The notes under the pieces: model-generated
The model's database searches: none
Seen by the model: only the letters and a program-made list of their open reading frames with translations
What the model was told of the DNA's origin: nothing
Source: Yuukianura sp. NJ FZ-2021
Taxonomy: Eukaryota
DNA: 64,000 nucleotides
Direction of reading: 5' to 3'
NCBI GenBank assembly: GCA_046563655.1
Contig: CM102283.1
Location: forward strand, 3,348,001 to 3,412,000
Part shown: piece after piece, positions 10,004-63,554 of the stretch
How positions within the stretch are numbered: the stretch's first letter is position 1
Layout: every line of letters starts with the position of its first letter
Position numbers and translations under genes: made by a program

Positions 10004-12224
10004 ATGACCCCGCGACCTACGACCGGAGAGGCCAATGACCTCGGGGTACTGAACATACACTGAAAAATTAGAACTTGCTTACATTGTTTACTTACATCTT
10101 ATATCTTCGCTTACATAATTCTTACATCATTACATAAATGTATAACTGACCTAATTTATGTAGGAATCGACTGGCAGAGGTTCTGGACCAATCAAAATCC
10201 CGCAGGAGCCGTCCGTGCTTTTTGTGGCTTCAAAAAAAGAAACGTTTCGACTTGGAGACAACTACAAAGCCTTTCTCAAAAAACTCAAAACAAGATTCAA
10301 CATCAGAGTGGTCCAGTAAGTAGAATTTCAAAAAATCAAAAATTTTCAAAATTTCAGATTTAATTTTTTAAAAACATTTCTTTTAGAGTAAAGGACGAAC
10401 TCACTTCAGACTTGCTGTCAACTGCTAAGCTTGTGATTGTCGCCGGATCCAAGACGCCGTTCACCTCAATCGAAGTAACGCTGTTAAAAAATTACGTTGA
10501 AAACAACGGCGGCTCCCTATTGGTCCTCGCTGAAGCCAATTCACCCAATCACGTTTACAATGCCATCATCCAGAACCATGGAATGAAAGTGGTCAAAGGT
10601 TAGGACTAAATACCAAACTTTTCAAGTCAAATTTTTCAAAATTTTGAAAATTTTAACTCGTTTTTTTTTAACAAAATGTACAGACTGTGTCATCCGAACT
10701 GTTCACCACAAGTACAACCAACCGAAGGAATGTTACATCCCGAACGCCGTGATTTGTTCGTTGCTTTTGGAGGGAAATTTGAACGAAGACGCGGAAAATT
10801 TGAATTTGCTTTACCCGTTCGGCTGTTCCTTGGAAGTCAATGTCCCTAGTTACCCGGTGGTCGCTAGTGGCTTAACGTCGTATCCAGTCGGACGTCCACT
10901 TGCCGCCTTCTTTCAAACGGAACAAAAACATGGAAAAATCTTCGTTTTCGGAAGCGGATCTGCTTTTAGTGACAAGTAAGTTCGAAGTTCTGACGTTCAG
11001 GGATCACATGCCTTGACAGATAAAGAACGAGAGTATAAAAAAAATAAAGATTCGAGTGGGATTCGACCCCACATCGCTTCTACTCGGGAAGCACTCTAAC
11101 CCTTGACCTGTCAGGCTCCGGTCTACAAACTATCGGGAGACTGGGAGTAGGACTGTTCCCGAACGCCACAAAGTTTGAGGAAAACTCGAATTCCGAATTT
11201 GCCGGGAAATTCTCGTAACAAATTACCGGGAAACTCGAACGACGCATGCTCTGAACCATTTTTTGACTTCTTCTGCGCAGGTACATTGACAAAGAAGACA
11301 ACTCTAAAATGCTGGACTTCATTCTGAATCTTTTGAGCAACGTGACAGACTTTGTGGTCCAACCGTCTGATATCGATGACTCTGACCTCACAGAATACAC
11401 GTACATTTCTGACACGGCAACGGAAGCAGCCAAGGTCAGAGTCTGTCTCCAGGAAAGTGACGACTTCATTATGCCCGGATCTGCAAACCATGTTGGGTAA
11501 ACTTTTCAAAATTTCAAAAAATGTTTCAAAATTTGAAATTTTTAAATTAACCCATTTTCCAGGGTCATTGAACCTACAAGATTGATAGACTCAAAGATGT
11601 ACAGTTTGAATTCAGCGCTTCTGCCGGAAGTGCTTCGATCACACGAGGACCTTGGAATTAAAAAAGGGCCGCTGCGTCTCATCCAGCCCCAATTTGAAAC
11701 GCCGCTGCCTGGACTCAAAGTGGCGGTAAAATTTGAACTTTAAAAAATAAACTTCAAAATTTTGAATTTGAAGATTTTGAAAGGTTTTCCCGCCAAGTTT
11801 TCGAGAGTTACCGCCTCCACCGTTGGAGTTGTTTGACCTGGATGAGGAATTTGCTTCTTCGAAGATCCGTTTGGCCCAAGTGACGAACAAATGTACTGAC
11901 GAAGACCTTGGATTCTACGTTCAATCGCTTGGAGCGATTCTCAACATGCGTTTGAAGGAGGAACAGAAAAACGATCCGAAAGTTATACTGCATTTGCTCC
12001 TGACGGAACTTTCAGAATTCAAGCAATCGGTAGCTTATTAATTTTAAAAAACGATTCTCAATTTGAAAAAAGTTGATTTTGAAAATTTTTGAGTTTTCAA
12101 AAAAATCCCGCTGTTTTGGTAGGAACATAATGGTGACTTTGATAACATCGATGTTTCGCCTTTTGCAACGGAGACTCCTGGATCAGCATTGCATCGAAGT
12201 AGTGCTGGAAGCTTGCGATTTTAG
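10004..12224 (+). CDS. IFT52: Intraflagellar transport protein 52
   Basis: YPFGCSL, RPLAAF, GSGSAFSDKYIDKEDN, PQFETPLP, VFPPSFRELPPPPLELFDLDEEF, RLAQVTNKC; last exon uncertain (alternative stop at 12041). Confidence 0.93.
10985..11119 (-). mobile_element. tRNA-derived SINE-like element, copy 1, in an IFT52 intron
   Basis: Similar to 27765-27900; reverse strand shows degenerate A-box and B-box (GGGTCGAATCCC). Confidence 0.6.
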
Positions 12225-29856: not shown

Positions 29857-32800
29857 TTAGCTATCCAGGTGTGTAATCCGCACCTAAATTTTTTTAGTTT
29901 CAAAATTTTGAAATCAAGTAACCATTTTTGAAATATTTTTTTTTGAAATTTATGCTTACCCTGGTTACAGCCGTGTTCGGAAGTGCAGCGGTGTACTCTT
30001 CCATGGAATTGACCATTCTCGGTGCGCTGGCGTACCGGTATCCGCCAGTACCGTCCGGTTCCGGTTCGTGGATCGAGAACGGGAGTCGGTCAAAGGGGTA
30101 ACCCATGGGTTTCGAATCAGGGTACAACTGCCCAAGTACTCCGCAGTATATTGGAGCAGACCGACATGATGCCGGTCTCGGTGGTCCGTCGATAACCGGA
30201 TTCGGTCGAAACGGTACAGCATCTTCTTCGGCATTGGTTGCCATGACGAAGAGGTCAAAGGGCATGCCCAGTTGGGTTCCCTTGGGCAACAGCATATGCT
30301 GCGGATATCCACAACCGCAATCTGGAGTTTCTCTGCGCAAGTCTCTTTCAAGCTGTTCGAATCTCTGGGGCCAACTAATCGTCAGAGAGGAATCGACTGA
30401 ACGACGTCGAATAAAGTTTTCTCCAGGCTCAACTGCACAAAATCCAAAAAACAAACATTTTCAAAATTTCGAAACAGGATTTCAGAATTTTGAAACTTAC
30501 GTTTTACAGTAAAGTAGTCTAGCACAAAGAACAAAGTTCTTTGGTCAAAGTATGTGTATCGATTTCCATGTTCGTCAAAAACTGGTGCCATAAAAATCCG
30601 AATTGAGGCTGTGTTGGATTTCACGTTAGGAGCTTTTTTCTAAACAAAATTTTCAAAATTGCTTAAAATTTGAGAAATTTTTTGAAAATTTAATTTTTTT
30701 TTACAATGGCAATTTGGTATTCAAAATGCTCGTAGTCGAGATGTTTCATGCAGACGTTGATTGGTCCTTGGGCGACAGATCGATTGAAGTCTAAACCACG
30801 TGAGAGGTCATAGGTCACGTAATTCCAGTACGTAGTGAGTTCATTCCTCCGTTGACTCAATGGTTTCACGTCAACATTCTCTATTGTCACTCCGGCCCAC
30901 AGAAGCGGGAATTCTCCCTGTTCAAAATTTTAAAAAAATTAACAAATATTTCAAAATTTTGAAATTTGTTTAATATCCGAAATTACTTCAGTTGGATGAT
31001 AGGGCGGCAAGTAGTGTTTGTGTCCATCCAAAATTTTGGCTAGCGGTAGATGGTATCTGTAGAAAACTGGATCTCTCATGGCTGAAATTAAAAAAAAAAC
31101 GTGTTGACCTTTGACCTTGGCCTTGACATTTAGTGCTCTTTGATTTTTATTCTTCACATTTAGTGATCTTTGACTTTGATCTTGACATTTCGTGACATTT
31201 CACTTTGACGTTGACATTTAGTGATTTTTGGCTTTGACCTTGACATTTAGTGATTTTTTTTTACTTTGACCGCGACCTTTAGTGACTTTGACCTTGAATT
31301 TGACCTTTGACCTCGAATTTGACCTTGACCTACCTCCCGATGGATCGGCCATTACTCCTGGGGGTGACCCTGTTCGTCCATGTGGGTCATGGGAAAGTCC
31401 AAGGATGATGTGACCAGAGTTATGGATGCCATAGGCTCCGTAGTATCTTGGATTAACTGACGTCACTGCCGCTTCAAGCGCGTCCGTCAAAAAGTCTATT
31501 CCGTTTCGGTTGTCCAGGGACACAAAGTCATTGTTGGACTAGAATTTTACAAAAAAAAAAAAAGTTGACCTTTGACCTCGAAATTTTTTTGTTGTTGTCT
31601 CACTGTCAGAAGTCGCCCAGTAGTGACTCCTTCCAGAATCCGACTCAACTGTAGATTTCTTTCTGCAATGGAAAGGTTCATGGGCGTATCTGGAATGCGA
31701 TTGAAGTAAATGTCCTGAAATGTTTAAACAAAATTTTAAACTTTTTTCTAAATTTTAAAATTTCAAAACAACATTTTAAAAGGTCAAAGGTCATGCCTGG
31801 AGGCGGGTATTTGGAGGTCGGTTGCTCCAACTAAGACCGGAGTTGGTTTCGTCCAGATTGGGATAATACGGTTCCTGGATGACGGTGGAGTAGTCGATGT
31901 CGAGTGGAACGACCTTGGGCAGACCGTTGGACAGCCTCTCACTGTGGTACCGTGCTAAAAGACTTTGGTGGAAGTAGCTGAACAGCTCACCGCGGCGGTC
32001 CGGACGCTGCGGAGGTCGTTGACCCGGCATCGTCATTGGCATAAACGGATTAGACAAGTGCCAGTACCTGAGACACGAAATTCAAAAAATAAAATTCTCT
32101 CCAATTCGAAAATTTTTTTTCTAACAAATTCTAAAGTTTTGAATTTTCCAACAAATTCTAAACGTTTGTATCAATTTTCCAACAAATTCTACAATTTGAA
32201 TTTTCCCACAACTTCTGGAGTTTGAAGTTTATCACAAAGTGTAAAATTTTCAACTTTTGTGCCAGTTGTGCAGTTTCGAAATTTTGAAAACTTCAATTAC
32301 CAGTGATTAGCATTCATCATGGGATCTTCGCGAAAATACCACAAAACGTTTTCCGGACCGTTTCGTGTACCGTAGCTTCCGTCTAGAACGATACAGCCGT
32401 CACCCTAGAAAAGTCAAAGGTCAAAGGTCATTCACCTTAGTTTTTAAATTGACGCGCTTAAACATTTTTTGGCGCCACTTACTCGAACATTTCTCGGTAA
32501 GCCTGCTAACCTCTTGACCTCGTTCATAACCGGAGAAGGTACAAACATGCTTGGAAAGATTTCTGTCAAAGCAGGACGCTGGAGGGCGGAAAGTTCCGGA
32601 CTGTGGATCACTGTGCTCATCAAACTCCGGATCCAAACGTTCGGATTAATGTCGCCAGATTGTTTCAGCTGACTTGCTATACACAACCGTTCTGCTGGGG
32701 AAGATGGCGCTGTAATGCAAAATTAAAAAAAAAGTCTCAAAATTCACAGAAAAGAAAAAAAAGAAACAAAAAACTTAAGACAATAGCTCATCCGTATAAC

Positions 32801-34596: not shown

Positions 34597-38440
<3,844 letters not shown>

Positions 38441-42316: not shown

Positions 42317-43252
42317 CAGTAAATGCTCTAATGCAAGCGCGTATTCTAATATAAGCGCATACTCTAATGCAAGCGCGGTTTCAGCGGGGGCAAATTGCGA
42401 TATAAGCGCGGTAGCTAACTTGAGTTTAAAGCAGAGCCTAGAGCAGTGACATCATCTGTTTAACTTCTAATGTTAATTTGACTCAAATCAAAATGTAGCA
42501 CTTAAATACAAGTTTTAAAAATGGTGTAACTAAAAGACGATCGTTTGATCTCAGTTTTAAGTTAAAAGTGGTTCAGTACGCTTCTACTAATACCACGGAT
42601 GGTACCGCAGCTCACTTCGGAATACACCGAAAACAAGTCTTCAGTTGGCTGAAGCAAAAGGATAAAATCGGTAAAAATTTAACTAAATTTAGCTTTCGAC
42701 TCGCGAAAACAACTTTCTAAAGAAGCAGACAAAATGGTTTACGATTGGATTTTAAATCAGCGCACCAACCAGTAAAGTGTCTCCTTCAAATCTATTCGTG
42801 TGAAAGCTAGGGAAGTCTACTCTGCAGTGCTTCAAACAAACGAATTTCAGGCCAGCAGTGGTTGGCTACAAAAATTTATGAAGCGCCATGACCTCAGTTT
42901 GAGAAAGAAAGCGTCGTTGGCTCAAAAAGATCCAAATTCGTTATTTGAGAAGCTTGTTGAGTTCGTCATGTACACTTCCAACCTCGCTGTTACGAATAAA
43001 ATTTCCAACCCAAATATTGTTGCCATGACTGGAATATTTTTTGACATGCCAAGTATTACTACAGTGGGCACAGTTGGAGGAGGCTTGAAGAAAGCAACAG
43101 TGACACCAGCGACGAATGGCATCACTATTAATTGAATTTTGGCTCACTTAAAACTTATTAATTATTCCGGTAATAAATAGTGTTCTAATAGAAGCGCGTC
43201 CGAAAGGTCGAAAATTCTTATAAGCGGCGCGCTTATATTAGAGCATTTACGG
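42317..43252 (+). mobile_element. Internally deleted pogo/Tigger-family (Tc1-mariner) DNA transposon
   Basis: TIRs CAGTAAATGCTCTAATGCAAGCGCG and CGCGCTTATATTAGAGCATTTACGG; TA on both flanks; transposase relics SFDLSFKLKVV and FQASSGWLQKFMKRHDLSLR. Confidence 0.9.
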
Positions 43253-43309: not shown

Positions 43310-45110
43310 TTAAATATTCATGGTTTCGGGATCATACGGGGGTGGAGCTTCCCATACTTCGTCTGATTTTACATACTGCTCAATTGCTTGTAGCGAACTG
43401 TAGGCTGGCGGCGGGGGAAGTTGATCTGTAGAAGCGGGAATTCTAAATCCCATTTGAATTGCATTGGGGTCACGTGCTATTTGGTTTTCAAGGTCTCGTG
43501 GTCCAGGAGTCCGGGCATTTCTAGGAACTGGAAGAGTGTAGACTACTCTTGGTCCAGGCGTAGCTGATGTTCCGCCTGCGGACACAAAATTAAGTTGGTA
43601 TTACTAGTGTTGCTGCATATCCACTTTTTCAGCATTTCGTCCAGGATATATCCACTGGATAAACGGATAAATCCGGATGAAATCACGTTTCCGATGGACG
43701 AAATTGAGTTTCGTCCGGAAGAAACCACAAAAATCCGGATATATCCAATACTTTCGAGGGGAGTGGAAGAAATATTTTATCCATCCACCAATATTGGGTA
43801 TTACGTTTTCATTACGCTTAAATTACATTTTCTCACGTTCACATTAAATTACTATCGTTCTGCACAGAAGTAATTCCCGAGTTTTGAAAAAAAAACTGCC
43901 AATGAAGCTTCCTTTTGCTCGAGGAAGATTCCTTGGCGGTTTTTTCAAAACTCGGAATTTACTTCTCTGCAGAACGATATTATACACTTTGTTTAGAGTA
44001 CGTTTAAGTCGCGTGAATTACGTTTACCCCGACAAACACCAGCTCGATGGCATCATGCCGGTTAGGTGATGGAATGATGGCATTCTGCTGGCACCGAGTC
44101 CGCCATTACGACCATGCGTAGTCCCAGTAATATATCGGTGCAATGAAGTGTTACGTGAGTTTAGTGCCAGCAATTAAGGCTGAATTCAGGACTGTACGCG
44201 CTGGTACTTTACAGCGGAGAGATGCAATGCCGACTTTACTGGTCAACAGCATCTCTCCGGTACCAAGCCAATATAAGTTAAAAAAGGTGTTTTACATTTA
44301 TTATGCCGGTATATTTCCAGTGTTGGGCCATCATGTGGATCTGAAAATGTTTCCCGCCACTTTCAACAATGGGATATATTTGAGGTTGGATAAAAAAAGG
44401 AGGTGTTGCATCATCTTTTTATGCTCAATTGCGCTTTTCAGTAGTATACTTGTACTCAGTTTGTCATTTAATAATTGAGATGACTCAGTTTAAGTACGCA
44501 GTTGTTCTGTTCACTGTTGACAATTCCACTTCCGTTGTAGCAAGACATGCATGTAATGTACATTACATGCATGTCTTGCCTTGCATCTTTTACACTATGA
44601 AGTTAATTTTTGTTACGTCGAGGACTTCTTCAAAGTTTTTGAAAAATTCACCTGTTCTTTTACTTTTTGACGTGGCAGAATTTTGAAAAATTCACTTTTA
44701 CACTTACTTTTTGAGGAATTGGAATTCTGAAAAATTCAAACGTACGTACCTGAGGAATTTCGGTAGGGCGACTGACGACGATTTCGTTTTTGATGTAGCC
44801 GACATGCGCAGTTTATAATTATAATGATTGCCAGGATGATCAAAACTATTTCAAAAAGTGACCTGAAAATTATACAGACGTATGAATTTCGAAATCGAGC
44901 ATTTTAGTCATGTAATCTCTTCATCACATGGTCGGCAACAAAATTTGGAAGTCAGAGTTTGACATCATTTTCTTACAGTGGGTCGAATAAAGTGTTACCG
45001 CTGTCACAGTCCTCTCCTGGACATTCTTTTGATTCAAATTGACCTTTGACACAACCAAAACTTAACACTGTCACTAATAGCTCAAACACAATCCAACTCA
45101 AAATATTCAT
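43310..45110 (-). CDS. Small type-I membrane protein with two PPxY motifs; exons 45110-44977, 44862-44750, 43579-43310
   Basis: Spliced product: signal-like MNILSWIVFELLVTVLSFGCVKG, short Cys ectodomain, TM LFEIVLIILAIIIII, basic stop-transfer, PPPPAY and PPPY. Confidence 0.7.
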
Positions 45111-45823
45111 TTTTCAAGTTTTTGTGAAACTATTTGAAAATCGATGCTATTTAGTAACACAATCCACCAATTTGTTAGTTAACAATTAGTAATTCCAATA
45201 TCTGACTAATTGAACTTCAACTTAACTAAAAAAAAGTGGGTGACGTTAGTTTCACGCCATTTGAAACATCCAAGGTCAACCTGTGCTAAATTTTGATGTA
45301 TAGTTTTAGTTTTGTCAACTCGAAATTACGAAAATTATCTTATCTTCATCTTTTTTTACGAATGCGAAAAATTAATACTCATCATCACATGGTGGCAACT
45401 TCAATATTTCCTTAAATAATAGTAACTTTTCTAACTTTACAACTAAAAATTTGGTGTAACTTAAAAAATGTCCAATTTTTTTTTCGAAGAAGAACGTTAT
45501 AAGAATATTCTTGTATCTTCATTTACTTTTTTTCAGTAATGGAAAGTGGGTCGATGAACTTTGGAAGGTCATTGACCTTTGCTAGAATTACAAAGTGATA
45601 ACAATGTGGGAAGTTTTACACTTTAGACAATGGATTCTTGTTCAAATAAACTTTTTTTTCATATCCCTGTTCAAACAAGCACAAAACACTTCAAAAAATA
45701 CCAAATTTTTCTCTTTTTAGTTGTGTCACAATTTACTCGAGTTTATAATAACTTAAACGAAGCAACCCAAAAATCTGAGGCGGGGAGAATTTTTAAAAAA
45801 AAGTTTTGACTAAAAATTTCAAA

Positions 45824-48800
45824 ATGGCTGAAAGATTTGTTCCGTTGGACTCCACTGAAATTGTGACGAAGGAAGTAATTGAAGAAATTTTGGCACAAAG
45901 TTATTCCAATTTGACTTTGATTTCATTTAAAGTGGAACCTGGAACTGACCGTGGAGACAATTACCTGTCGCTCATGTACGCTGTGGAAGTCACCGCGGCT
46001 GAAAAGGTCAAAGGTCACAACGGTCACGACATTGCCCATAACCAAGGTCACAACGATGCGCAGAATCTGTTCAAAATTTCATGGATGTTCAAAACAATTC
46101 CGAGAAATCCACTGCGCCAGTCACAAATTCGCGAAAGTGGATTTTACCACCGAGAAGCCCAAATGTATCAAAAAGTTCTTCCAGAACTTTTTTCAAAATT
46201 TTGGACCAATGAGGATGACTCACTTTTTGCAAAATGCTTGGCCGTAAAGTTATCGCCTCCAGAAGTTGCTACAGCACAGGACTACATTGCTCTGGAAAAC
46301 CTCAAGGTCAAAGGGTAAGACTGAAATATTTTGTTGTCATGACTACGCATGGTTGGTAAGTGCTTTGCTGGTGCTCTGCTTCTAACAAAAGCCACACAGA
46401 AACCATTGTTCCACTTTTCAAAAAAATTTAGTTTTAGGTTTTCCAAATTCTCAGCACATTTTTTCATACAATTTGAAAGTAGGTTTTAGAACTCTGAAAA
46501 GTTTGTAATCACGATACTGCGTCACGACGTTCAAAAATTCGAAATTTCCTGGCACTTCAAGGTATTTCTCAAAAATTTAAAATGTTTAAAAAATTTTTGT
46601 GTTTTTGGAAAGGTAAAAGCTTACAAAAAGGTTAGGTTGATATTTATTTTTTATTTTAGAGTAAATTCGGTTGCCATCGATTTTTCTTTTGAAAATTGTT
46701 TGAAAACTTTGTTTAAAAATTCAAAAACGTCGATTTTAAAAGTTTTTGAGAAGTTTAGTGTTAGGGTGCGGTGGGTTTTAAGCGATTTATCGCTTCTGAC
46801 TTAAACTCCAACTTTTTTGTAATAAAAGCGCCAACCCAACTCGTCGCAATCGGTGACGCTTCGTCTCCCGACCACCAATGGACTTAATGCGACGTCTCCG
46901 ATTGGCTGGACGCCCCAACTCGTCCCACCCTCCACGGTCCCACCAGTCCTCCTCTCAACAGCAAGTGGGACGGCCCCACGGTGGCCCCACCGGAAGAACT
47001 ACCCATACTCCACCACCAGCAGTGACTCCTGCACAGCCTGTTCCTACACCGTTGCCATTTCAGGATCCGTTGACCGTGCCATCTCCGGTCACCAACAACA
47101 ATAACACGACTTTTCCGTGGCGGTTTCACAGCGGTGTGGTCGTGAATTCGAATCGGTCGCGGCGTCAATTGCGACCAAGTCGCAGTTCATACGCGGGACT
47201 CGCGACGCAAAAATCGCACTGCCAAGAATATCCAGAGTCTTGGACCAACTGGCAACAAATTGGAGTCGGCGCAACAGCTTTTGTCGTCTCTTCAGACAAT
47301 ATCGTAAGTTTCAAAATTTTCAAATTTTTTAAAAATTTTCAAATTTTTGAAAAATTTTCAAAAAGTGTTTTTTTTTTTTTTAGAAATTTCCAGTCCATCC
47401 AGTCGTCCTGGCCGGAGCGAGTCCCGTTTTCAAATCGCTGTTCAGCTCATGGCGTCCGCAAAACAGCTCCACTTTTTCGCCCGACTGCTCCACTTTTTCG
47501 CTGGAAGTAGATCATGTCATGCTTGGCTTACTATTGAAGTACATTTACACTGGAGTGTGTCACGTGACGCCCGAAAACGTCGAATCGCTGCTGGACGCTG
47601 CAAATCGCTTCAAGGTCGTCGGAATCATTCAGCGCTGTTGCCAAGTTTTGCACGGAATCCTCACTCCACAAAACTCCGTCAAAATTTACAACGTTGCCAA
47701 ATCCTGTTTGTGCTCCCAACTTCAAACCAACGCCAAAATGTACTTGTTGCACAATTTCAAAGCCGCGATTGACCAATCAGAATTTTTGAATTTGGACTAC
47801 GACGAACTCTCTTCACTTTTGCGTGACGACTGCCTCAATGTCCGCAGCGAAGAACTGGCGTTTTCAGCGATTCAGCGCTGGACAGAGCATGACCCAGAAA
47901 AACGACTTCAGCGATTGGTTGATCTTCTTGGCACAATTCGATTTGGACTCATGCAGCTCTCTTTTTTCAACGACGTCGTCATGACCTGGCAGTACATCGC
48001 TACAAACCCAGTCAGTTTTCAAAATTTTGAACTTTTCTTAAAATTTTTTCGAAAAAGTAAGTTTTTCAAAATTTTTAGACTGTCATAGAGGGACTACTTC
48101 CGGCCCAAATGTTTTTGGCTGCATTTGAAGGCCGAAATGGTAGTGACCTTGACCCGACCGAACCTTTGACCCGCCCACGCGTTCCGTACGAAATTATCTT
48201 CGCAATTGGTGGCTGGAGTGCAGGAAGTCCAACGAGGTTAGGTTTTTTATTATTATTTTTAATTAATTAATTTATTTATTAATTAATTTATTTATTTATT
48301 AATTAATTAATTAATTTATTAACTTAATTATATTTTTAGTTTTATGGAAACTTATGACGTCAGAGCGGATCGTTGGTTTTTGTCACAAGGGTCTGACGTC
48401 ACACCGCGGGCCTACCACGGTCTAGTCACTCTTGGACATTCCATTTACATGATTGGTGGTAATTTTCAAAAAAAAAGTTTCAAAATTTTTGAAGTTCAAA
48501 GTTTTCAAAGTTCGAAATTTTGAAATTTTGAAGGTTTTGATGGAAATGAACACTTTAATACCATGAGATGTTTTGATACAATGACGCGAACTTGGACTGA
48601 GAAGGCCAACATGCATTACCCACGATGTTACATCAGCTGCTGTGTGCTAAGTACGGTTCAAAAATTTGGAAAATGTTTCAAAATTTTAGTTTTTTTTCAA
48701 AATTTTACTTTTTCGTCAAAATTTTGTGTGTAGACGGTCAGATCTATGCCATTGGTGGATTCAACGGACGGATTCGAATGAATTCCGTTGAGCGCTACAA

Positions 48801-51080
48801 TCCGCCCACCAATCAGTGGGAAGTTTGTCCACCAATGACACGGCAGCGATCAGATGCCAGCGCATGCGCTTTGCTTGGGAAAGTCTACGTCGCTGGTGGA
48901 TTCAAGTAAGACTAAAAAAACTTCGAAATTTTGAATTCTGAAATTTTGGTTTTCGAAATTTTGGTATTTTTTGCAGTGGTCAAGAAGTTTTGAACAGCGT
49001 AGAAGTTTTTGATCCGGTCGAAAATCAATGGACTTTTATTCTTCCAATGAAAAGCCCGCGAAGCGGTGTCGTCGTCACTGCTCACAAGAACAAGCTCTAT
49101 GCAATTGGCGGTAAATTCAAAATCCAAAATTTTCAAAATTTCAAAAGTTTTCAAAATTTTGAAAATTTGGTAGGTTTCAATGGGTTTTCCCGCCTTAGTA
49201 GTGCCGAAACCTACGATCCGACTACACCACGTGACTGGGAGTACATCACTGACATGTCAAGTCCAAGAAGCAACTTTGCTGCTGCAATTGTTGACGATAT
49301 GATCTTCGTCATTGGCGGTAAAATTTTAATTTCCAAAATTTGAAAAATTTCAAGATTTTCAAAATTTTCAAAAATTTCAGGTTTCAACGGTACGACGACA
49401 ATTCCGTACGTGGAGTGCTACGACAGCAACCAAAATCTTTGGATCGATGCAGCTCACATGAATTTGAATCGATCTGCACTTGCCGCGTGCGTTCTGCGTG
49501 GTCTGCCCAATGCGCGTGACTTTTCGTACTTGTCACGAGTCCAGGAAATCCTTGGACTCGGAAGTACGAACGATACCGAAGACGAAGACGAACCGAGTCC
49601 GATGGCTACCGATTCCGATTCGGAATCAATGCCATCTCAAGCTTCTTAAAAAAACGAGAAGCAACTTTCAAAATTTTTTGCTCCCGGGGAGATTCGACCA
49701 CCGGCCAATCGGAAGACGACACTTTTGACGCTCTACTTTTGAAATTTATTTGAACGAAGTTAACAATTCTGAAATTCTCGCACCCACTTTCTCAACAAAT
49801 CACGTTTTGACTTGTTTTCCAAATTTTGAAATAATAATTTTCAGTATTTTTTTAAAAACAGCAGAACGTAAATTCATTTTCTTTTGCTTTGCTTTGGCTT
49901 CGCTTTGAAAAAAAATTCAAAAACCTTCTAAAAATAATTTTCGGTTTTAAAATTTTGATGTTTCAGTTTCAAAATGGTTCCAAGGAATACATTTCTTGAC
50001 TTGCAGCAAGCAACTATCACAGTTCAGGCAAGTTTTGTTTTAACCCTTACATACAAGTTAAAGATTTCAAAATTTCAAATTCTTCAAAATTTCATATTTT
50101 TTTTTGGAAACTGGTTTTGAATTTTAGGCTTTGGCAAAATTTCATGCAGCATCTTTTTGCAAATGGGGAGGCGACGGAAATAAAATTTTAGCTGAATTTC
50201 CATTTTTGAAAGAGTCGCAGTGGGTTGAAGAAGAAAAATTGTCACCGCTTTTGGTCAAATCTGTTCTAAACACGTTTGAAAACCTTGAACAACTTTTAGA
50301 ACAGAATGGATTTTTAGAACAAACTGAAAAGTTGAAAACTTTTTGAAAAAACAAACGTTTTTGATCAAATGCATCACATGACTTCTGTTTCAAATCAGTT
50401 TCCTTCTGTTCTAAATCACGGTGACCTCTGGACCAACAATCTTCTATTTTTAGCCAATCACAAAGGTTAGTTTGAAAAGCGCACCAATGCCATTTTGGAA
50501 TTTTCATTTTTTTTTAAATTTTAGGTGAGTCTTTTCAAAAATTGAAAATGGTTGATTTCCAAATTTCAAAAGTTGGATCAAGGGTTTTGGATTTGTCGTA
50601 TTTGTTCTACACAAGTCTTCAGAAGGAAGTACTAAATACGCAGCTTCCGCAACTCCTTCGCATGTACTTTGATGAATTTCATGAGAACATCAAAATTTTA
50701 ACTTTTTCAAAAAACACAGAAATTTTGAAATTCAAATTTGGAGATTTGAGTTGGGAGAACTTTTTAGCAGAATGGACTCAATACAAATTGTATGGTTTCG
50801 TACTGGCCGTGTTCTACGCCCCACCCAGTAATTTAGAAAACTTTTCAAAAATTTAGAATTCTAAAAGTTTCCAAACATGAAAAGAAAATCATCAAAATTT
50901 GGTTTGATACTTGCAGTGCTGGCAGTTGCAGAAAATATTCCTGACATGGAGACTTTGTGCTACGCGGATTTTGAAACAACGAAAAATGAGGAGAACAAAT
51001 TTTCCAATTTACTCCAATCTCCGTATCTACTTTTACGGATTTTCAATTTAGTCGAACATTTTTCAAATTTTCAGAAGTAA
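45824..51080 (+). CDS. Ecdysteroid kinase-like (EcKL/DUF227) gene; exons about 45824-46314, 49967-50027, 50128-50465, 50525-50827, 50916-51080; apparent 1-nt frameshift near 50340
   Basis: GDNYLS, FYHREAQMY, LENLKVKG|FKM, ALAKFHAAS, HGDLWTNN, MVDFQ, DLSYLFYTS. Confidence 0.82.
46878..49649 (+). CDS. KLHL10: BTB-BACK-Kelch protein, KLHL10-like, nested in EcKL intron 1
   Basis: FPVHPVVLAGASPVF, YIYTG, BACK domain, RPRVPYEIIFAIGGWSAGSPT, TYDVRADRW, Kelch repeats, SALAACVLRGLPN. Confidence 0.85.
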
Positions 51081-51141: not shown

Positions 51142-54100
51142 TTATTTCCTTCTCATCTTTTGGTTGAATTTCCTTGCCGCTTTTTTTGGTGGTTCACGTT
51201 TTGAAAACGATTTTTGAGTCCTCTGACCAAAGGATTTTTGAACTCCTCCACTCGATTGTGATTTTGCTCCGCCTCCAGTAGAAGAACTTTTGAACTTGGA
51301 CTGATGCCGAAACTGCCTTGCTGCTTTCACATTCGTCAATTCATCATCAAAATGAGACTTTTTCTTCTTCTTTTTCCCAGTTGAAATTTCCCGCTCTCCA
51401 AAAGCATTTACACCAGCATTTCCCTTGTGTCGTCTACTTCGTTTTGCCGCTCGAGCTTGAAATTCTGCAATTTTCTTCAATTTCAAATTTTCAGCTGCTT
51501 CAGCTGCTGCGTCTCGCTCCTTTGCAGTAAGTCGTTTTCCTTTTAGTCGCTTCGTCTCTGAACATATGAAAACCATTATTAAAAATAACCAAATCAAAAT
51601 TTCAAAAAAGAAAAAGAAAAGTTTTTTGAATTTTGAAACTGAAGATGAGTTACCCTCTGATCGATCTTTATGTGATTGAAACCATTGTCGCTGTCCGTCA
51701 TCACGCTGCTCATCAATTGCTTTTTTCCTTTTCTTCTTGGCAGCTTTGGATTCGAGGCTTTTGATGGCTCTGTTCGCTTCAATTTCTGCTTTTGCTATGG
51801 TTCTCTCTGCCTCTTCTTCGGCCATGATCGATTCAACCTTGGACTCCAAATTCTTCACTTTGTCACGGTACTTGGTTATCATTTCTATAAAAAATTGAAA
51901 GTTTCAAAAAATAAATTCAAATTTTCAAAAAAATAAGTTCAAAATTTCATCCACTCATACCTGTTGGAATGAGACGAGCTTTGACTGGTTGAGTTGCAGC
52001 TTTAGCAACTTGTTTCATGAGACGCCGATCGGATTCTCCAACAAGAGAAACTGCTAAACCGGATCTGCCAGCTCGTGCAGTTCTACCACATCTGTGAATA
52101 TACTGTTCCAGTGTGGGTGGCATCGTGTAGTTCACTACGCTTTGGACACCAGGAATATCCAGACCTAAGTCAAAACAAAAAGTCAAAATGAAAAGTCGGG
52201 CCTAAAAGTCTCAATGAAAAGTCAGCAAAAAGTCGTAATGAAAAGTCAGGACAGAAAAAGTCGAACCTCTGGCAGCGACATCCGTGACGATCAGCACGTC
52301 AACTTCTCCAGTTTGAAACTTTTTGAGTCCCTCCAGACGCTGAATTTGACTCAAGTCACCATGGAGTTCTCCCATCCGAATCCCCATCAGTCCCAGCAAA
52401 ATGTGAAGTCGATGTGCAATTTTCTTCGTAGGAACAAACACCATCGTCTTGGAATGAAAAGTTCGAACAATCAAGGAAGCAAGCATAGCTTCTCTGTCAG
52501 ATTCATTTCGGATTCTAAAAAAAAAAGAAAACATTTTGAAGAAAAAAAAGTTCAAAATTCCCACCCTTTCTGATTTTTTTTTTTGAAAATGGAATCCTAC
52601 CTGACAAATTGTTGGCGTAAGTTGAACGCCACTTGCTTGTTGGAGTCAACAAATATTTTGGCGGGATTTTGAAGTGACACGCTCGCCAAATCTTTCACAC
52701 GATCCGTCATCGTCGCTGAAAACAAAAGCGTTTGCCTCCTTGGACTACACTGACGGATAATCTCCTTCAACTGATCTGCAAACCAGTCATCTAGCATCCT
52801 GTTTCAAAAAAAGTTTCAAAAAAAGGGTAAAACTTTTCAAAATTTGGAAAACTAACCTATCAGCTTCATCTAATATCAGGATTTCAATGGAGTCAAGTGT
52901 AAATGAAGGTGTATTGCCCAAGTGATCAATCAATCTTCCTGGAGTTGCAATTACAATGTCCGGATTTTGTCTTAGGACTTGCTCTTGTGCTTGGACATCT
53001 AAACCTCCAACAGAAAGTCCAACCTGTAACAAAAATTCAAGAAATTTTGAACTTTGAGTCTTAATTTCGATGACTATTTTGAAATCATTACCTGGATTTC
53101 ATTTGAAAATGAAGCTAATTGCTTCGTTACTGTGTAAACTTGGACTCCCAACTCACGCGTCGGTACCAAGCAAAGGACTCGAGTGACAGCCTGTGACCGG
53201 GGCTGGATGATAAGAAAAGACTTCATGAAGATTTTAATCAGCTGATTAATCGATTAATTCAAAAATAACGATTACTTACCTTGTACAAAAGTCGCTCGAG
53301 TACTGGCAGCATATAAGCTGCAGTTTTTCCGGTTCCAGTTGCCGCACACCCACAAATGTCTCTCCCTGCCAGAGCAAGAGGAATTGCTGCAGCTTGAATT
53401 GGAGTCGGATGAACAAAGGCAAGTGACGTGATAGCCTAATCGTCAACAATGATACAAGTTTTTATCAATTAGCTTGACGTTTACCTAGTTAATTAACTTA
53501 GTAGTAATTAACATGAAAAGTAAATACCTTGAGTAGAGGTCTGGAAAGATTCATCTGATGGAAAGACAGATCAGTTTCAAAGACATAGTCTGGATCACTT
53601 TCCAGAACAGCCACATTGGACTCATCTTGTTCCTCTTCTTCGACCTGATTCTTCCCCTTCTTCTTATGCTTCTTGTCCTTGGTCTTAACACGAAGTTCAT
53701 CTGCTTGCAGTTCGTCATCTGATAGGTCAATGTCATCTAATTCCAGTTTCTTCTTCTTTCCAGCTTTTGATATGGAATCATCCGACTCAAATCCATCTTC
53801 TCCATTTACTAACTTGTCATCGTCAGAAGACTCCGATTCGGACTTGATTTCAATCGTTTCGTTTAGGTCATTGACTCGATTCAATTTCCTCTTGTCAATT
53901 TTCTCATCCAGTGTAGTCCTCTTCGTCAGCTTCTTCAAATTGCTTAGTTTATGAAGCCGTTCTGTCCATGTATCTTGGTTGTACTCGCCAAAGTCAAAGC
54001 CAGGATCGATCCCACCGGCTTTAGCTGATTTCAGGCGCTTTCGTGTGGGTTGAAACTAAACATGAAAAATTACGGGTATAGTAAGTTAGTTTACTTAAAA

Positions 54101-57352: not shown

Positions 57353-58289
57353 ATGAATACTCCCAGCGGAAGTCCTACTCATAGTGATCATTTTAATTCT
57401 GCAGAGATTCCTACGTTCGCTGACCTTTGGACCGAGGGAAACTCACTGGGATTACCGGAAACGACGCCAGCACAGCCCACAAATCACGAAGCACAAAAAC
57501 CATCTTCCTCTCAATCTAAATCAATGACGACCACGGATAAGCTCAAGCGTCCCGCGGTAAACCAATTACAACCCATTCCAAATCCGCTAAAGCTTTACGG
57601 TAAATGAATGCAGTAATTTGATTGGGGGAAATTATTAACAGGCAACTGGAGAAGGGGAGACTGTACTAGCACGCAAGCGAGCCAAACTGCTAGCAACAAT
57701 CCAAGCAGCCACAAAGGAGTTGGCCGACTTGGACAAAACAACTGAACTCCATCCGGAGAATACCGAACAGGAATCGACTCCAACGACGTCGACAAAGCCG
57801 CAACCAACCCCAACTCCATCTACCTCGCAATCAACGAGTGCTGCAAGCCATGAGCCTCCCAAGGTAAACCAATTACAACTCAAATTCGGTTTGGCGCAAG
57901 TCTAGAAATGTGCGAAACCATTTTGAAACTGAAACTTTCGCTACTTGCATACCCCGGATAAACAGTTCATTCCACTTTTTTGATTTCAGACGGGTGGTAT
58001 AAGAGGAGGCCAAGATGAAGGACGAGTGAACGTAACTCAACAAAATCAGCTCATGCTCGCGGAGGCAAACGAGATGGAAGCCCAGCTGAAAAAAAAGATG
58101 CAGGAAGATTTCAATCAGTTCAAGAAAAAGATGGAGGAAGACTTCAACAAGGCCATCGCTGCATGGAAAGCTCAGTCGAAAGAAAAGTACGCAACCGAAA
58201 GGGATGAAATCGAACGCATGCGTAAGGCTGGGACTGAGATGGGGCAAGAAGATGCCAAAAATCCTCAAACTGACACAGCTCGTCAATAA
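57353..58289 (+). CDS. Orphan gene B; exons 57353-57556, 57642-57863, 57990-58289
   Basis: Three ORFs joined by phase-0 introns; last exon homologous to 62606-62896. Confidence 0.72.
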
Positions 58290-58727: not shown

Positions 58728-60119
58728 CTAGGCAAGTTTTCGATGTTCCGGTTTGTGAGTCGTTTCATAATCGGAGTGGACGAAAGCTCTTTCCACATTC
58801 GGCAGCGATTCGAGCTTGACTTGCAGCGATTCCGACAAGTCGTGACTCTCTTGCAGCGTCGTCTCTGGTGGCAACACAATATCAACTTCTACCACCACTT
58901 TTTCACCAGCATGGTAAGCTCTACAAGTATCCACTTGCAGTATCCTCTCATCATGCGTCATTGCAATATAAGTCACTTTCTTCAGAAAAGTTGGATCAGC
59001 ACATTTCCCAACAATCAGCCTCGCATGTTTCACTACCGCGCCAGTCCATGACCTCAGAATCACCAGAGCAATTATAATGGCTCCAACTGGATCCAGATAA
59101 GGATTGACCTTTGACCCCAATACTGCCAGTATCACGCCAGTACCATTGGCGAACAAGTCATTCCGGTGGTCCTGTGCCAGGATCCGAGCTGTTGGGTGAT
59201 CCAGTAGTCGGCAGTAGAGGAACAGCACTAATATCATGGTATTAGCACGCCATTGTTCCGAATGAAATGATCCGAAGTGAATTGCTCCGAAAGACAAGTT
59301 GTTCCAAAATTGAATAGCCTATTTTCGGAGCAATTTGCCGTTCGGATCAATTGGATTTGTAGTATTTCATTCGGAGCAATTCCATTCGGAGGAATTCATT
59401 CGGAACAATGGCATGGAACCTAGTTTCATAATCAGCGATCCAGCGACTAAACTCATGCTGACAAAGTCCAGCTCCGGACTTTCTGGAACTGTAGCCAGTG
59501 CCATGATGGCCTTGATGATGAGCATAAGTGACAAAGTTGACATGAGAGTGCCGAAGATGATGATTCCCACAGTTTCAAATCGGGCTTTTCCAGAAGGATA
59601 TCCATAGATTTCCGGTTTCTTTGCTAAGTAATTAGCTCCTACAAGAATCACTGAAGAGGTCAAGTCCATAAAAGCGTCAGCCATCGTGGCAAACAGCGCC
59701 AGCGATTGAGAAATGATCGCTGCAGTCAGCTGAAGGAAAAACAGGAGGATGTTGGCTGTGAGGGAGCCGTAAATGGCAATGTTCAGTTTCAGCGTTTGTC
59801 TTTTTTCAGCGTCAATGTGACGCTGATCCTCCAACGGAGCAAGTAACTCATCGATAATCGAATTTTGTGATTCGTAAAATTTTTCTAACTTCTTTTTTGA
59901 TTTGGTTTTAGGTAAGTTTTCCAAATCTTGTTTCGATTTCCTGCGAAGTTTTAGTCCAAGTGGATCCTCTGTTGAAGAAGAAGTTCCGCGTTCGATACTT
60001 TCAATACTGGAAGTTGTGGCGCGAAACCTCAAATTTCCGGCTTCCTGATTGGTCGATCGGATTTCAGTTCCACTCTCCGTAAAAGAGGGGTTGTCGTGAC
60101 CTTGACCTGTGAACGCCAT
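58728..60119 (-). CDS. Cation diffusion facilitator, Mn-CDF/MTP8-11 type; single intron 59419-59228
   Basis: SLALFATMADAFMD, YPSGKARFE, AQDHRND, LDPVGAIIIA, VEVDIVLP, HDLSESLQ, VERAFVHSDYE. Confidence 0.9.
59246..59415. mobile_element. MITE-like element filling the CDF intron
   Basis: Perfect 18-bp inverted repeat GCCATTGTTCCGAATGAA (59249-59266 and 59395-59412) with internal TCCGAA/TTCGGA subrepeats. Confidence 0.85.
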
Positions 60120-60711
60120 TGGACGAGCAAATGAAGCGAAATGTTGGTGTGAATCACTGTTGCAAGAAAGTACTGTTCCAGTACTTCCAAAATGTTGCTA
60201 AAACGTTGGTTACTGGATTTCGTTTGGGTTTCGTCGTGCTTTAGCACTTCTCGGTGGTATTACGTGCGGTACTACACGGATGCTGGTACGACTTTGCGTT
60301 TTAGTTGGAAGATTAGATCTGAACAGTTGAGTTTAGTTTCTGTGCAGATTAGTTTAAAAATGGAAGGTAATTGAGTTTTTAGCACTTCAAATTATCATGA
60401 GTGATCAACATGAAATGCCATACATGTGTTAAGTATTCAAAAATATTTAGTATATTTAAGCAATATTTAAGCAAACTCAACGTAAAAATCAACGTTAAGC
60501 AAAAATTTTTAACGTGCATGAAATTTTAGTATTTAAATTTTCATTTACGCCTCGAAAGCCAAAGAATCAAGAAGTCTTTTGCTTTGAAATGTTTCTGATT
60601 TTAAATTGTCAATTTTTTGAGTAGCATTTATTATAGTCTTGAAAAAAAAAAGTTTTTAGTTTTTTTTTCTATTGTGTGGAACTTGTTATTTTTGGTTTGG
60701 TATGGAAGTTC

Positions 60712-60790
60712 AGCCGGATTTTGAATTTAGTCGAACATGTTCACATTTTCAAAAGCCATAAACGAAAGTTTAGTCTTCGAAGGTTTTTGA
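60712..60790 (+). pseudogene. Short relic of the EcKinase 3' end
   Basis: cggattttgaatttagtcgaacat...agtcttcgaaggttttt matches 51035-51115. Confidence 0.7.
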
Positions 60791-61195
60791 AAGATATAAT
60801 TTTAGATTTTGACCTTCGTTTCCCATTGTCCTTGTCGTGGAATGCCTACCGTTTGCTAAGTAAAATATGGAAAGTCACAAGATTTTGAGTTCATTTGAAT
60901 TTGTCAATCTTCTGAGTTCATTTGGAGAAAAAAAAAGATTTGAAGATTGAAGTCAATCTTCGCAGAAATTTTGCATAAAACTCCTACAAGGGGAAGCTTC
61001 GCAGCACAACTTGCCAGAAACAGGTAACTAACATTTTTTTAATATGATTTTTGGTGCATTGAGGAAAATTGGAAATAGGAAATGAGTGTGTTGGAGAATA
61101 GTGACAAGAAAAGTCATATAGTTTAAGACACTGACCCTTCACTCTGACCTTGTCAGTCATCTATCGTTCTACTAAGTTGAACAGTTAAGTGTACC

Positions 61196-62896
61196 ATGTC
61201 CGACTCCGACAGTGACCTTCATACCCCAAGTCCCCCGACCATTGAAAACAGCGCCGCAGTAATCTCTGAATTGCCATCATTTGCAGATCTTACGGAACTT
61301 GACCTTCCGCAAAGAGAGGAGCCTGGACCTTCATCACAAATCCTGCTTGGCATGACGGCTGGAACCCCTCATCCTGGGGTAAAATAATAATAAAAAACCA
61401 ATCCAAACAATTTTTTGAAAAAATTGGTTTCAGTTGGAAAAATACTGAAATTATTATTTCGAAATTTGGAAAACAAGTCAAATCGTGATTTGTTGAGAAA
61501 GTGGGTGCAAGAATTTCAGAATTGTTAACTTCGTTCAAATAAATTTCAAAAGTAACGCGTCAAAAGTGTCTTTTCGTCCAAAATGTCGTGTTCCGATTGG
61601 CTGGTGGTCGAATCTCCCCGGGAGCAAAAAATTTTGAAAGTTGCTTCTCGTTTTTTTTAAGAAGCTTGAGATGGCATTGATTCCGAATCGGAATCGGTAG
61701 CCATCGGACTCGGTTCGTCTTCGTCTTCGGTATCGTTCGTACTTCCGAGTCCAAGGATTTCCTGGACTCGTGACAAGTACGAAAAGTCACGTGCGTTGGG
61801 CAAGCCACGCAGCACGCAGGCGGCAAGCGCGGAGCGATTCAAATTCATGTGTGCAGCGTCGATCCAGAGATTTTGGTTGCTGTCGTAGCACTCCACGTAC
61901 GGAATTGTCGTCGTACCATTGAAACCTAAAATTTTGAAAATTTTGAAATTCAAATTTTGAAAATTTCAATTTCCCGTGGTTTTTTACCGCCAATGACGAA
62001 GATCATGTCGTCCACAATTGCAGCAGCAAAGTTGCTTCTTGGACTTGACATGTCTGTGATGTACTCCCAGTCACGTGGTGTAGTCGGATCGTAGGTTTCG
62101 GCACTACTCAGGCGGGAAAACCCATTGAAACCTACCAAATTTTCGAAATTTTGAAAACTTTTGAAATTTTGAAAAATTTGGATTTTGAATTTACCGCCAA
62201 TTGAATAGAGCTTGTTCTTGTGAGCAGTGACGACGACGCCGCTTCGCGGGCTTTTCATTGGAAGAATAAAAGTCAGTTCGTTTTCGACTGGATCAAAAAA
62301 CGCTGTTCAAAATTCTCAAAACGAATCATTTGGAAATTCAAAATTTTGAGGTTTTTAATCTCACTTGAATCCGCCAGCCACATAGACTTTCAAATCGAAA
62401 TTCAGCGAAGTAAAATCAAAGCAAAAAAAATGGATTTGAAATGAAAACGTTCTTTCCCGCCTTTTTAATTTTTTTTAAAGTTGGTTTTGTGTTTGAAACT
62501 ACTGTATGTCTGTCCGTATGTCTGTCCGTATGTCTGTCTGTCTGCCATTTCGCTACTTACATACGCCGGTTACAACTGCTCATTCCACTTTGTTTTTGAT
62601 TTCAGACGAGCGGTTTAAGAGGAGGGCAAGCCGTAACTGGAAATCCGGAGGCCATGCTTGAAGAAGCGGATAGGAAGGAAGCCCAGTTGCAGAATAAGAT
62701 TCAAGAAGAGTTCGACAAGTTCATCGCAGAATGGAGACTTAAAATGGAACAAAAGTTCGCACAGGAGAGAGGCGAAATCGAACGGCTGAGAAATGTTGCG
62801 ACCGCAATGCTGGAAAAAGATGCCGAAAAAAGTGAAACAACGGAAACCGCTCAAAGTCCTCCGCCACAACAACTGCTGGATTCTGATTCCGATTAG
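61196..62896 (+). CDS. Orphan gene C; exons 61196-61378 and 62606-62896
   Basis: Phase-0 splice gives TSGLRGGQ...MLEEADRKEAQLQNKIQEEFDKFIAEW...ERGEIERLR, homologous to gene B. Confidence 0.72.
61435..62390 (-). pseudogene. Inverted partial copy of KLHL10 3' exons and 3' flank inside the gene C intron
   Basis: Matches 48880-49850 on the opposite strand, introns retained, 5'-truncated. Confidence 0.92.
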
Positions 62897-63554
62897 GAGA
62901 GCTTCCTTAAGTACCTAACTTCCTTTTTGCTTTTACTAAAACTGTGTACGTTAACTGCAATACCGTGATTAGTTAATTACTAATTAACTAATTATTGATT
63001 AATTGAACGTGCCATCATCTGTTGTTGTAAAATGTTAAAACGCCGTAACATTAGTCGGGTTGCCAAACATTGAGCAGGGCAGGAAGCTAACTCAATAGGA
63101 GAGAAATCAAATGCTAAGATTTTAATTAATTATTTAAGTTAATTAGTTAATTAACTTAGACTAATTAACTCATTATGCAAAATTGAACTTAACGACGACA
63201 GATCCACAGCGAATGACGACTTGAAGGCCTTGCTCTAAAAAAAACATGATCAATCTGACAGAGTTTAGAATTAAAAATTTAATTTTCTTCTAAGAAAGCT
63301 AATGAGCTACACTTCTTAACCCCTTTTACAATGCTTCTCAAAGCTAACTAATTAACTTCGTAACAAAATTTAAGTTATATAATTAAGATTTAAGTCGGAG
63401 TTAGACTCCATTCTCATTCCTTTCCCATGCCTTTTATGGGAATTAAAGGCTATATAGCCGTGAAAAATAATTAGTTGTAGTTTTTTTTTCTATTTTGTGG
63501 AACTTGTTAATTTTTGAATGATTTTTGGTGTGAAGTTGACGGACTTTGTGGAGT

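Follow-up and report, generated by a model that had tools for sequence, protein, structure and literature searches.

Arthropod genomes often contain nested genes. Exchange by interlocus gene conversion is known between genes and their nearby pseudogenes or paralogues, e.g., for CYP21A2 and CYP21A1P, and antisense RNAs or endogenous small interfering RNAs (endo-siRNAs) derived from pseudogenes are exemplified by those of mouse oocytes and by Su(Ste)/Stellate in Drosophila. The locus considered here is an inverted partial copy of a BTB-BACK-Kelch gene, which lies in the intron of a small host gene of Yuukianura sp. NJ FZ-2021, within 64,000 nucleotides (nt) of contig CM102283.1 (GenBank assembly GCA_046563655.1, positions 3,348,001 to 3,412,000, forward strand); this whole stretch is called the window in the following, and its first letter is position 1. 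The source gene is designated S, the host gene occurs in three modules, A, B and C, and the Kelch inserts of two of these are termed copy A and copy C. An original prediction, made from the letters of the window, had taken copy C for an antisense segment which is kept matched to its target. Related cases in the literature are small RNAs from rice pseudogenes (PMC2708354), ERI-6/7 siRNAs against recent duplications in Caenorhabditis elegans (PMC3213143) and hairpin-RNA (hpRNA) loci of Drosophila, which silence young testis genes and meiotic drivers (PMC10317233, PMC10292708). A search for literature linking KLHL10, the name given to S in the original prediction, with antisense, siRNA and duplication turned up nothing relevant.

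Copy C is perhaps best regarded as what is left, after 5' truncation, of an inverted paralogue of the BTB-BACK-Kelch gene nearby, i.e., as an ordinary duplicate in decay and not as an antisense regulator; the probability of this reading is estimated at about 0.5. What the original prediction described is thus borne out, and its interpretation is supported in part. The locus appears to behave as a nested duplicate that decays under patchy conversion, and it would resemble antisense or siRNA loci in layout only. With decaying nested duplicates on the opposite strand it shares the same intron position, retained introns and splice sites, and a ratio of nonsynonymous to synonymous divergence (dN/dS) far below 1, followed by truncation, stop codons and frameshifts; it differs from them in that the 3' third alone survives, that a full-length stage has to be assumed and that the relic is found in three paralogous hosts. 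As in conversion of the CYP21A2/CYP21A1P type, the copies lie within tens of kb of each other and form a mosaic of old and young blocks, whereas here they are inverted with respect to the source and share about 1 kb. A partial gene copy placed so that antisense RNA could arise, with long perfect matches, is reminiscent of the pseudogene endo-siRNA loci; unlike those, the locus has codon-based and not nucleotide-based conservation, and it is known from its DNA sequence alone. Derivation by inverted partial duplication of a target gene is also a feature of the Drosophila hpRNA loci as outlined in the two reports, in which both arms belong to one transcript, whereas module C has no second arm and its source is 11.6 kb away, with genes between them.

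Structure and divergence of the inverted copy

Self-BLAST comparison aligned positions 61438-62391 in inverted orientation with S 49851-48879 (87.9% identity over 996 columns, with 56 mismatches and 65 gap columns) and 61404-62390 with module A 6751-7732 (85.7% over 1023 columns, 69 mismatches, 77 gaps). The presence of inverted Kelch 3' exons and flank in the intron after coding exon 1 of gene C, as originally described, was thus confirmed, and so was the equivalence of this intron to that of gene A, since exon 1 is homologous and the first 14 intron nucleotides are identical. Copy C comprises the last 3.1 exons of S plus 3' flank, antisense to the host (Table 1). Its breakpoints differ from those of copy A, also as described, and it contains no EcKL coding pieces, whereas module A contains two (matches at 6371-6689 and 7860-8069). 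The sequence at 62390-62490, which had been considered spacer-like, is actually part of a second copy of the Kelch 3' flank, which has diverged much more strongly (62392-62500; 77% identical to S and 79% to A at ungapped sites).

Introns 2 and 3 and a remnant of intron 1 are retained in copy C, which is thus not a processed pseudogene or retrocopy with loss of the parental introns. Neither is it a complete present-day nested gene: module C lacks BTB, BACK and blades 1-4, and no sequence of these parts, of the 5' Kelch exons or of a promoter is left in module A or C. A conceptual frame leads from an ATG at 62258 through X3 to X4, with 158 open codons and all four splice sites kept; compared with S, one residue is changed (A19S), alongside about 20 silent differences. 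Upstream of this ATG, a conserved tryptophan of the blade is lost and two deletions are found. In copy A, two stop codons and an insertion of 1 nt interrupt the frame.

Table 1. Coordinates of the copies, their source and the host gene of module C in the window.
Feature	Position	Strand	Remarks
S, last four exons	X1 48734-48905, X2 48977-49110, X3 49174-49317, X4 49381-49649	+	
Source segment, 3' exons and flank of S	48879-49851	+	Between EcKL exons
Direct repeat flanking module C, left copy	60657-60693	+	Partner 63478-63514; 35/37 identical, E 2e-13; copies 2.8 kb apart
Host C coding exon 1	61196-61378	+	61 codons, starts with ATG; BLASTP against A exon 1, 18/56 identical, E 3e-5
Host C intron	61379-62605	+	GT...tttcag, 1227 nt; only coding intron; contains the inverted Kelch copy
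Main-block end of copy C	61404-61437	-	3'-flank insertion of about 32 nt, present in copy A, not in S
Kelch 3' flank copy (S 49650-49851)	61438-61655	-	About 200 nt; S and C differ at 7/200 ungapped sites
X4 copy with stop	61656-61925	-	X4a, old silent-site island; X4b, equal to S at ungapped sites
Intron 3 copy	61926-61987	-	Donor and acceptor kept; block in common with A, not S
X3 copy	61988-62131	-	0 amino-acid changes compared with S
Intron 2 copy	62132-62194	-	Splice sites kept; 2/63 sites differ from S
X2 copy	62195-62316	-	Acceptor and first bases deleted, 5-nt deletion, blade Trp->Leu
Degenerate intron 1 remnant and last 26 nt of X1 (62365-62390)	62317-62391	-	5' breakpoint, S 48879
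Second, old Kelch 3' flank copy	62392-62500	-	Includes the shared insertion; 57/74 identical to S, 76/96 to A (ungapped)
Microsatellite (CTGT)n / (GTATGTCTGTCC)3	62502-62544		(GTATGTCTGTCC)3 at 62504-62538
Host-derived intron 3' end	62548-62605	+	Common with B 57936-57989; 84% over 83 columns, continuing into exon
Host C coding exon 2	62606-62896	+	96 codons and stop, coiled-coil-like; homologous to B last exon
Sister insert in module A	6371-8102	-	Main block 6677-7860 = S 49922-48752
EcKL pieces of module A, inverted	A1 6371-6689; A2 7860-8102	-	A2 crosses the acceptor of A; = S 50286-50032
Relic of the same inverted segment in the equivalent B intron	57891-57935	-	45 nt; S 50009-49960, EcKL micro-exon; 78%/50 columns, E 1.6e-5

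DNA reads of five runs from two studies contain 20-86% of 210 sampled 31-mers from 60900-62900, with shares of 0.86 and 0.74 for the two studies, the latter under a second organism code. Since 61% of the 31-mers of this region are wholly intronic and only 246 of 1971 recur elsewhere in the window, a share of 0.74 requires intron words specific for C. The objection of an assembly artefact, named in the original prediction, is addressed by these words for the content of the intron.

The three Kelch copies differ mainly at silent sites. In the exon-derived parts, synonymous (dS) and nonsynonymous (dN) divergence were 0.229 and 0.021 between S and A (dN/dS 0.09, four-fold sites differing 16/88), 0.232 and 0.011 between S and C (0.05, 17/85) and 0.189 and 0.030 between A and C (0.16, 14/82); the proportion of synonymous differences (pS) was 0.17-0.20. 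The excess of silent changes was significant (p=5e-7 for A-C, p=3.5e-13 for S-C), and all 12 sites at which A and C agree against S are synonymous (12/12); the lineage-specific changes were 8 synonymous and 8 nonsynonymous in A, and 7 and 5 in C. In the first 134 nt of X4, denoted X4a, 15 of the 16 variable sites are third positions and the 16th is a synonymous first-position change; four are four-fold sites with three states. On the three-copy tree X4a requires at least 20 changes, two of them nonsynonymous, a pattern which is excluded if two branches were neutral (p<=2e-4). It follows from these patterns that, during most of the time since they separated, copies A and C, or their immediate donors, were translated as Kelch sequence.

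At neutral sites, insert and host appear to be of about the same age. Non-coding host sequence upstream differs between A and C at 61 of 374 ungapped sites (313/374 identical; Jukes-Cantor distance, JC, 0.18), and relics of the last EcKL exon upstream of A, C and B are at JC 0.17, 0.21 and 0.28, respectively, from their source. Those flanks of the inserts which were dead from the outset likewise appear old, with 18/203 own-lineage changes in A2 and 17/74 sites different from S in the distal flank copy of C. The silent divergence of the insert equals this value for host non-coding sequence, and no general rejuvenation of the insert is therefore needed. The original prediction had stressed that the Kelch-derived part is far more similar between copies than the host exons are to each other, and had named uniform identity across insert and host as a counterargument. 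The raw contrast stands (93-95% at ungapped insert sites of A, C and S, compared with 18/56 and 41/98 residues of the host exons), while at silent and non-coding sites identity is roughly uniform (dS 0.19-0.23 versus JC 0.18). The contrast thus mainly reflects protein constraint on Kelch codons, as opposed to fast-evolving host exons. A reading by which the insert would be younger than its module by a factor of 2-4 was dropped once silent sites were counted apart.

Origin of the insert and patchy gene conversion

Copies A and C have a rearranged layout in common which S does not possess. An insertion of about 32 nt is present in copy A, in the main-block end of copy C and in its distal flank copy; a block of intron 3 is the same in A and C while it differs from S in 12 of 46 ungapped columns; and in both copies downstream sequence precedes the Kelch exons (junctions 50286|48752 in A and about 49925|48879 in C), the junction of C being what a single deletion in an A-like layout would produce. 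The equivalent intron of B also contains a relic of the inverted segment. These features, together with the EcKL relics, point to one ancestral complex inverted insertion next to the source, which probably was duplicated later with its module, and not to the repeated capture suggested originally. A second, independent capture of a source fragment into the same intron might account for the different breakpoints and the absence of EcKL pieces from C, but it is very improbable in view of the shared insertion, intron 3 block and permuted order, which are absent from S, of the C junction nested in the A layout and of the B relic at the same place.

The following course of events is proposed. A stretch of the source region, containing the Kelch gene and flanking EcKL exons, would have been duplicated once and inserted, inverted and partly permuted, into the intron of an ancestral small gene; the host gene with its insert would then have given rise, by duplication, to modules A, B and C. 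During most of their later history, copies A and C evolved as translated Kelch-coding sequence; in the simplest case they would have been opposite-strand genes nested in the host intron. Their high likeness is mainly due to protein selection, which protected about three quarters of the exon sites, while silent sites diverged like host non-coding sequence. Deletions, presumably independent in A and C, would have removed the 5' two-thirds of the gene in these modules and nearly all of it in B. Copy A has decayed further, while copy C keeps an open and apparently splice-competent frame of 158 codons. The 3' end, consisting of X4b, i.e., the remainder of X4, and the flank, was probably homogenised with the source by interlocus gene conversion. 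The pre-mRNA of the host would carry antisense Kelch sequence as a by-product of this layout, and no sign of selection for antisense is seen.

The divergence forms a mosaic, which is evidence of conversion in patches. Third positions differ in X2 at 7/45 (S-A), 3/40 (S-C) and 6/40 (A-C) sites and in X3 at 5/48, 4/48 and 4/48; in X4a the numbers rise to 12/45, 13/45 and 9/45 (20-29%), and in X4b they fall to 1/43, 0/44 and 1/43 (p=9e-5 for the contrast of X4a with X4b). The 3' flank differs at 10/200 sites between S and A, 7/200 between S and C and 17/200 between A and C. In a scan statistic, 14 of the 27 S-C differences fell inside one 134-nt window (p=0.0056); no significant island of differences was obtained for S-A (p=0.71) or A-C (p=0.44). 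X4b encodes an acidic tail, which is not conserved in a metagenome relative (L001), and the identity of its silent sites is therefore not due to protein constraint. It is supported by these data that conversion with S has homogenised the 3' end; perhaps it acted also on X2-X3 of copy C. Gene conversion, as invoked in the original prediction, may thus be accepted for this end, while it is not needed to explain the overall likeness.

In a GENECONV-like permutation with 100 variable sites, runs were significant for S-A (p=0.0015) and A-C (p=0.0022), but not for S-C (p=0.23); the two runs were discounted as conversion tracts, because both lie in poorly aligned intron blocks of low complexity. A contrast in the share of synonymous changes between X2 and X4 (Fisher p=0.015, 0.048) was likewise not accepted as proof of conversion from source to copy, being post hoc and based on small counts.

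Several observations weigh against a long translated history of a nested paralogue. The four-fold sites in conserved host residues differ at 6/11 (A-C) and 8/17 (B-C) positions and, at face value, suggest a lower age for the insert than for the host exons; the numbers are small and come from alignments of proteins that are 32-42% identical. Divergence of the insert is lower in its non-coding parts than at its silent sites (intron 2, 2-4/63; 3' flank, 7-17/200), and extra constraint or conversion must therefore be invoked for them; moreover, the permutation, conditioned on variable sites, gave no tract signal outside the two low-complexity intron blocks. A functional paralogue elsewhere could have been the donor of the silent-site states. 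In the EcKL pieces A1 and A2, a control without any possible function, 8 of the 16 own-lineage changes are likewise synonymous, and the neutral share of synonymous changes may be higher here than the computed 22%. The metagenome outgroup L001 gives weak polarity (36/175 sites differ from S): of the six sites in the first 180 nt of X4 at which A and C agree against S, two appeared to be derived in S and three in A/C, and one was uninformative, with an outgroup too diverged for its polarity to be trusted. Finally, a full-length past has to be assumed, as no 5' Kelch exons remain, and it would require separate deletions in A and C, with end points in one and the same exon at a distance of 127 bp; if the truncation was ancestral to A and C, constraint would have acted on the truncated frame.

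Other explanations for the similarity of the copies

The insert could have been a dead 3' fragment from the start, whose main block was overwritten by recurrent conversion from functional Kelch genes, either S or paralogues or both, so that its differences resemble those which separate functional genes. Such a process would produce the mosaic of divergence, and the presence of three copies within 56 kb would favour it. The dead flanks of the inserts also look old: the distal flank copy of C differs from S at 17/74 sites, compared with 7/200 for the flank of the main block, and the A2 flank has 18/203 changes of its own lineage, versus 8/203 in A1 and 16/574 in the Kelch exons of A (p=0.0009). 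Conversion from the visible S cannot, however, leave 13/45 third positions different without a single amino-acid change in X4a, so that an unseen donor would be required, and the conditioned permutation revealed no tracts outside the low-complexity introns. This explanation is considered unlikely.

Copy C might still be functional as a truncated gene, the frame of 158 codons (part of blade 5, blade 6 and the acidic tail) being expressed on the minus strand, either by itself or joined to further exons by splicing, under present-day selection. The intact frame and splice sites would be in accord with this, as would the ratio of one amino-acid difference to about 20 silent ones from S, and a truncation shared by A and C would place the constraint after that event. 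Downstream of the ATG, the changes specific for C are 5 synonymous and 1 nonsynonymous, while the 96 nt upstream contain 2 synonymous and 4 nonsynonymous changes besides the two deletions; these counts are small and, by eye, far from significant, and the upstream changes cluster near the deletions and may stem from one repair event. Kelch repeats form beta-propellers, and one and a half blades are not expected to fold alone. Since the sister copy A is dead in addition, a functional truncated gene appears unlikely.

Maintenance by pairing was suggested in the original prediction; in this reading, pre-mRNA of the host would pair with Kelch mRNA, giving endo-siRNAs or a block of expression, and conversion would be favoured as it keeps the match. 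In both A and C the insert is antisense to the host, the transcription of which is assumed. Among 1207 21-mers of the intron, 303 match the spliced 3' mRNA of S perfectly, and the longest perfect match, inside the X4 part of copy C (61656-61925), extends over 140 nt. X4b and the 3' flank are conserved including their silent sites. In X2-X4a, on the other hand, third positions differ by up to 29% at dN/dS of 0.05-0.16, i.e., amino acids are kept while complementarity erodes at silent sites, which is conservation of codons and not of nucleotides; only the block of X4b and 3' flank is conserved at the nucleotide level, and conversion without selection would explain this. Parts derived from exons are no better conserved between A and C than those derived from non-coding sequence (522/556 versus 284/307 identical). 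No hairpin was found in 60900-62900, where three inverted pairs of 18-28 nt are AT-rich or due to chance; two long inverted arms within one transcription unit, as in hpRNA loci, are not present in module C. The common orientation can be attributed to common descent, and in B the insert has been lost. Pairing-based maintenance thus appears to find no support in the sequence, and a selected source of antisense RNA or siRNA is regarded as quite improbable. The conservation of X4b and flank may leave a narrow opening for it: the block of about 340 nt at 61438-61790 could be kept matched by conversion because intron RNA pairs with Kelch mRNA, with control by endo-siRNAs or antisense RNA, although this, too, must be called improbable.

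The modules, their surroundings and the meaning of the locus

The window has a gene content of arthropod type, with hemocyanin, EcKL kinases, IFT52, a GH31 glycosidase and pogo/Tc5 remnants, and introns of about 60 nt. S is an apparently intact gene on the plus strand (about 46857-49649). Its N-terminal part contains a BTB domain followed by BACK (Pfam E 3.4e-15 and 2.2e-25, respectively, on 47384-48088) and its C-terminal part Kelch repeats (Kelch_1 on the exon open reading frames, ORFs, 48601-48906, E 4.6e-22, and 48942-49340, E 2e-20); about six blades can be read from the exon ORFs, and the frame is clean across X1-X4. Since EcKL exons are located on either side (45797-46318 and about 49967-51077), S appears to be nested within an EcKL intron. 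The closest solved relative by sequence is the BTB-BACK part of KLHL3 (E 1.8e-25). An exhaustive HMMER search with the BTB-BACK exon yielded 6351 relatives with a top identity of about 43%, a word-based search among longer proteins yielded 1146 candidates of which none was scored, and in the atlas only generic BTB/BACK clusters were obtained; KLHL10 is a putative label, taken from the original prediction.

Between the EcKL ORFs 50128-50346 and 50336-50470 (HGDLW motif) the frame shifts within a homopolymer (50336-50343), for which the inverted EcKL copy A1 has one extra T; the change points to a frameshift of the gene itself or to an error of the assembly. S 48879-49851 on the plus strand and copy C 61438-62391 on the minus strand constitute an inverted pair of 1 kb, 11.6 kb apart. 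Genes for a DEAD-box helicase and for cation efflux, a TBP-like ORF and module B lie between them, a block that could be inverted if the two copies recombined.

The host gene of module C has two coding exons in phase with 157 codons. The opening 14 nt of its intron are the same as in A and the final 58 nt or so recur in the intron of B; the last exon of C agrees with that of B at 41 of 98 residues (E 2e-19). Relatives in the window are exon 1 of A (6036-6206) and three B exons (57353-57556, 57642-57863 and 57990-58289). Because dN/dS between B and C is 0.47 over 83 codons, the family looks like one of real, fast-evolving coding genes. No Pfam family was found for the host protein and no usable atlas match for exon 2, and a word-based search with exon 2 (52-168 amino acids) gave 27 candidates, none of which was scored; these blanks do not prove that the small gene is unique. 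Exon 2 of gene A is unrelated to that of C, and its in-phase frame ends after 30 codons. In module A, the acceptor and the first 14 nt of exon 2 (8088-8343) stem from the inverted EcKL piece (7860-8102 = source 50286-50032), and the region contains, in the +1 frame, a coiled-coil-like ORF of 85 codons; decay or remodelling of gene A may be under way.

A relic of the last EcKL exon is present at the start of each module. Module A is bounded, similar to module C, by a direct repeat (5320-5428 and 8573-8681, 84% over about 110 nt, copies 3.25 kb apart), and units of small gene plus insert may have been placed or duplicated as whole blocks. No EcKL or small-gene homologue was found beside the Kelch exon of the metagenome contigs L001-L003. 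A search of 60500-63500 against Rfam gave one sub-threshold match only, outside the insert: just upstream of module C, at 60505-60606 (+), a box C/D small nucleolar RNA of the family snoZ13_snr52 (29.7 bits versus a gathering score of 47, E 0.01).

Elsewhere in the window, 13417-14599 matches its own reverse complement (81% over 1225 columns) and is thus a large inverted repeat with arms of about 600 nt, perhaps a foldback element or a hairpin-RNA-like locus; smaller palindromes are located at 43850-43982 and 59252-59380. The DNA-binding domains of Brinker/Tc5 type of a pogo-like transposase are split over two ORFs at 42499-43132. A partly palindromic, AT-rich motif with a period of 9 (unit AAATTTTGA) occurs in presumed introns of about 60 nt in unrelated genes, namely the Kelch, IFT52, hemocyanin, GH31 and helicase genes, e.g., at 47312-47358, 49127-49168, 49332-49373, 10326-10356 and 10633-10654, and further at 29898-29913, 30949-30964, 38358-38384 and 52834-52853, which hints at a genome-wide intron-specific repeat or an element spreading through introns.

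The locus illustrates a trap, namely that a seemingly dead antisense fragment whose similarity to its parent looks excessive is not necessarily kept for base-pairing; by splitting differences according to codon position, the likeness can be traced to a legacy of protein selection and to local gene conversion. If small RNAs were in fact produced from the 3' block, a pseudogene-type regulator would have been found outside the usual model species, and an old nested paralogue would have found a new use, in two paralogous host genes, as a regulator acting in trans. The finding would matter more if the Kelch fragment of 158 residues proved to be translated. As they stand, the modules represent a compact case of the decay of nested duplicates in a short-intron genome, with three small, fast-evolving paralogues that carry relics of the same inverted insertion.

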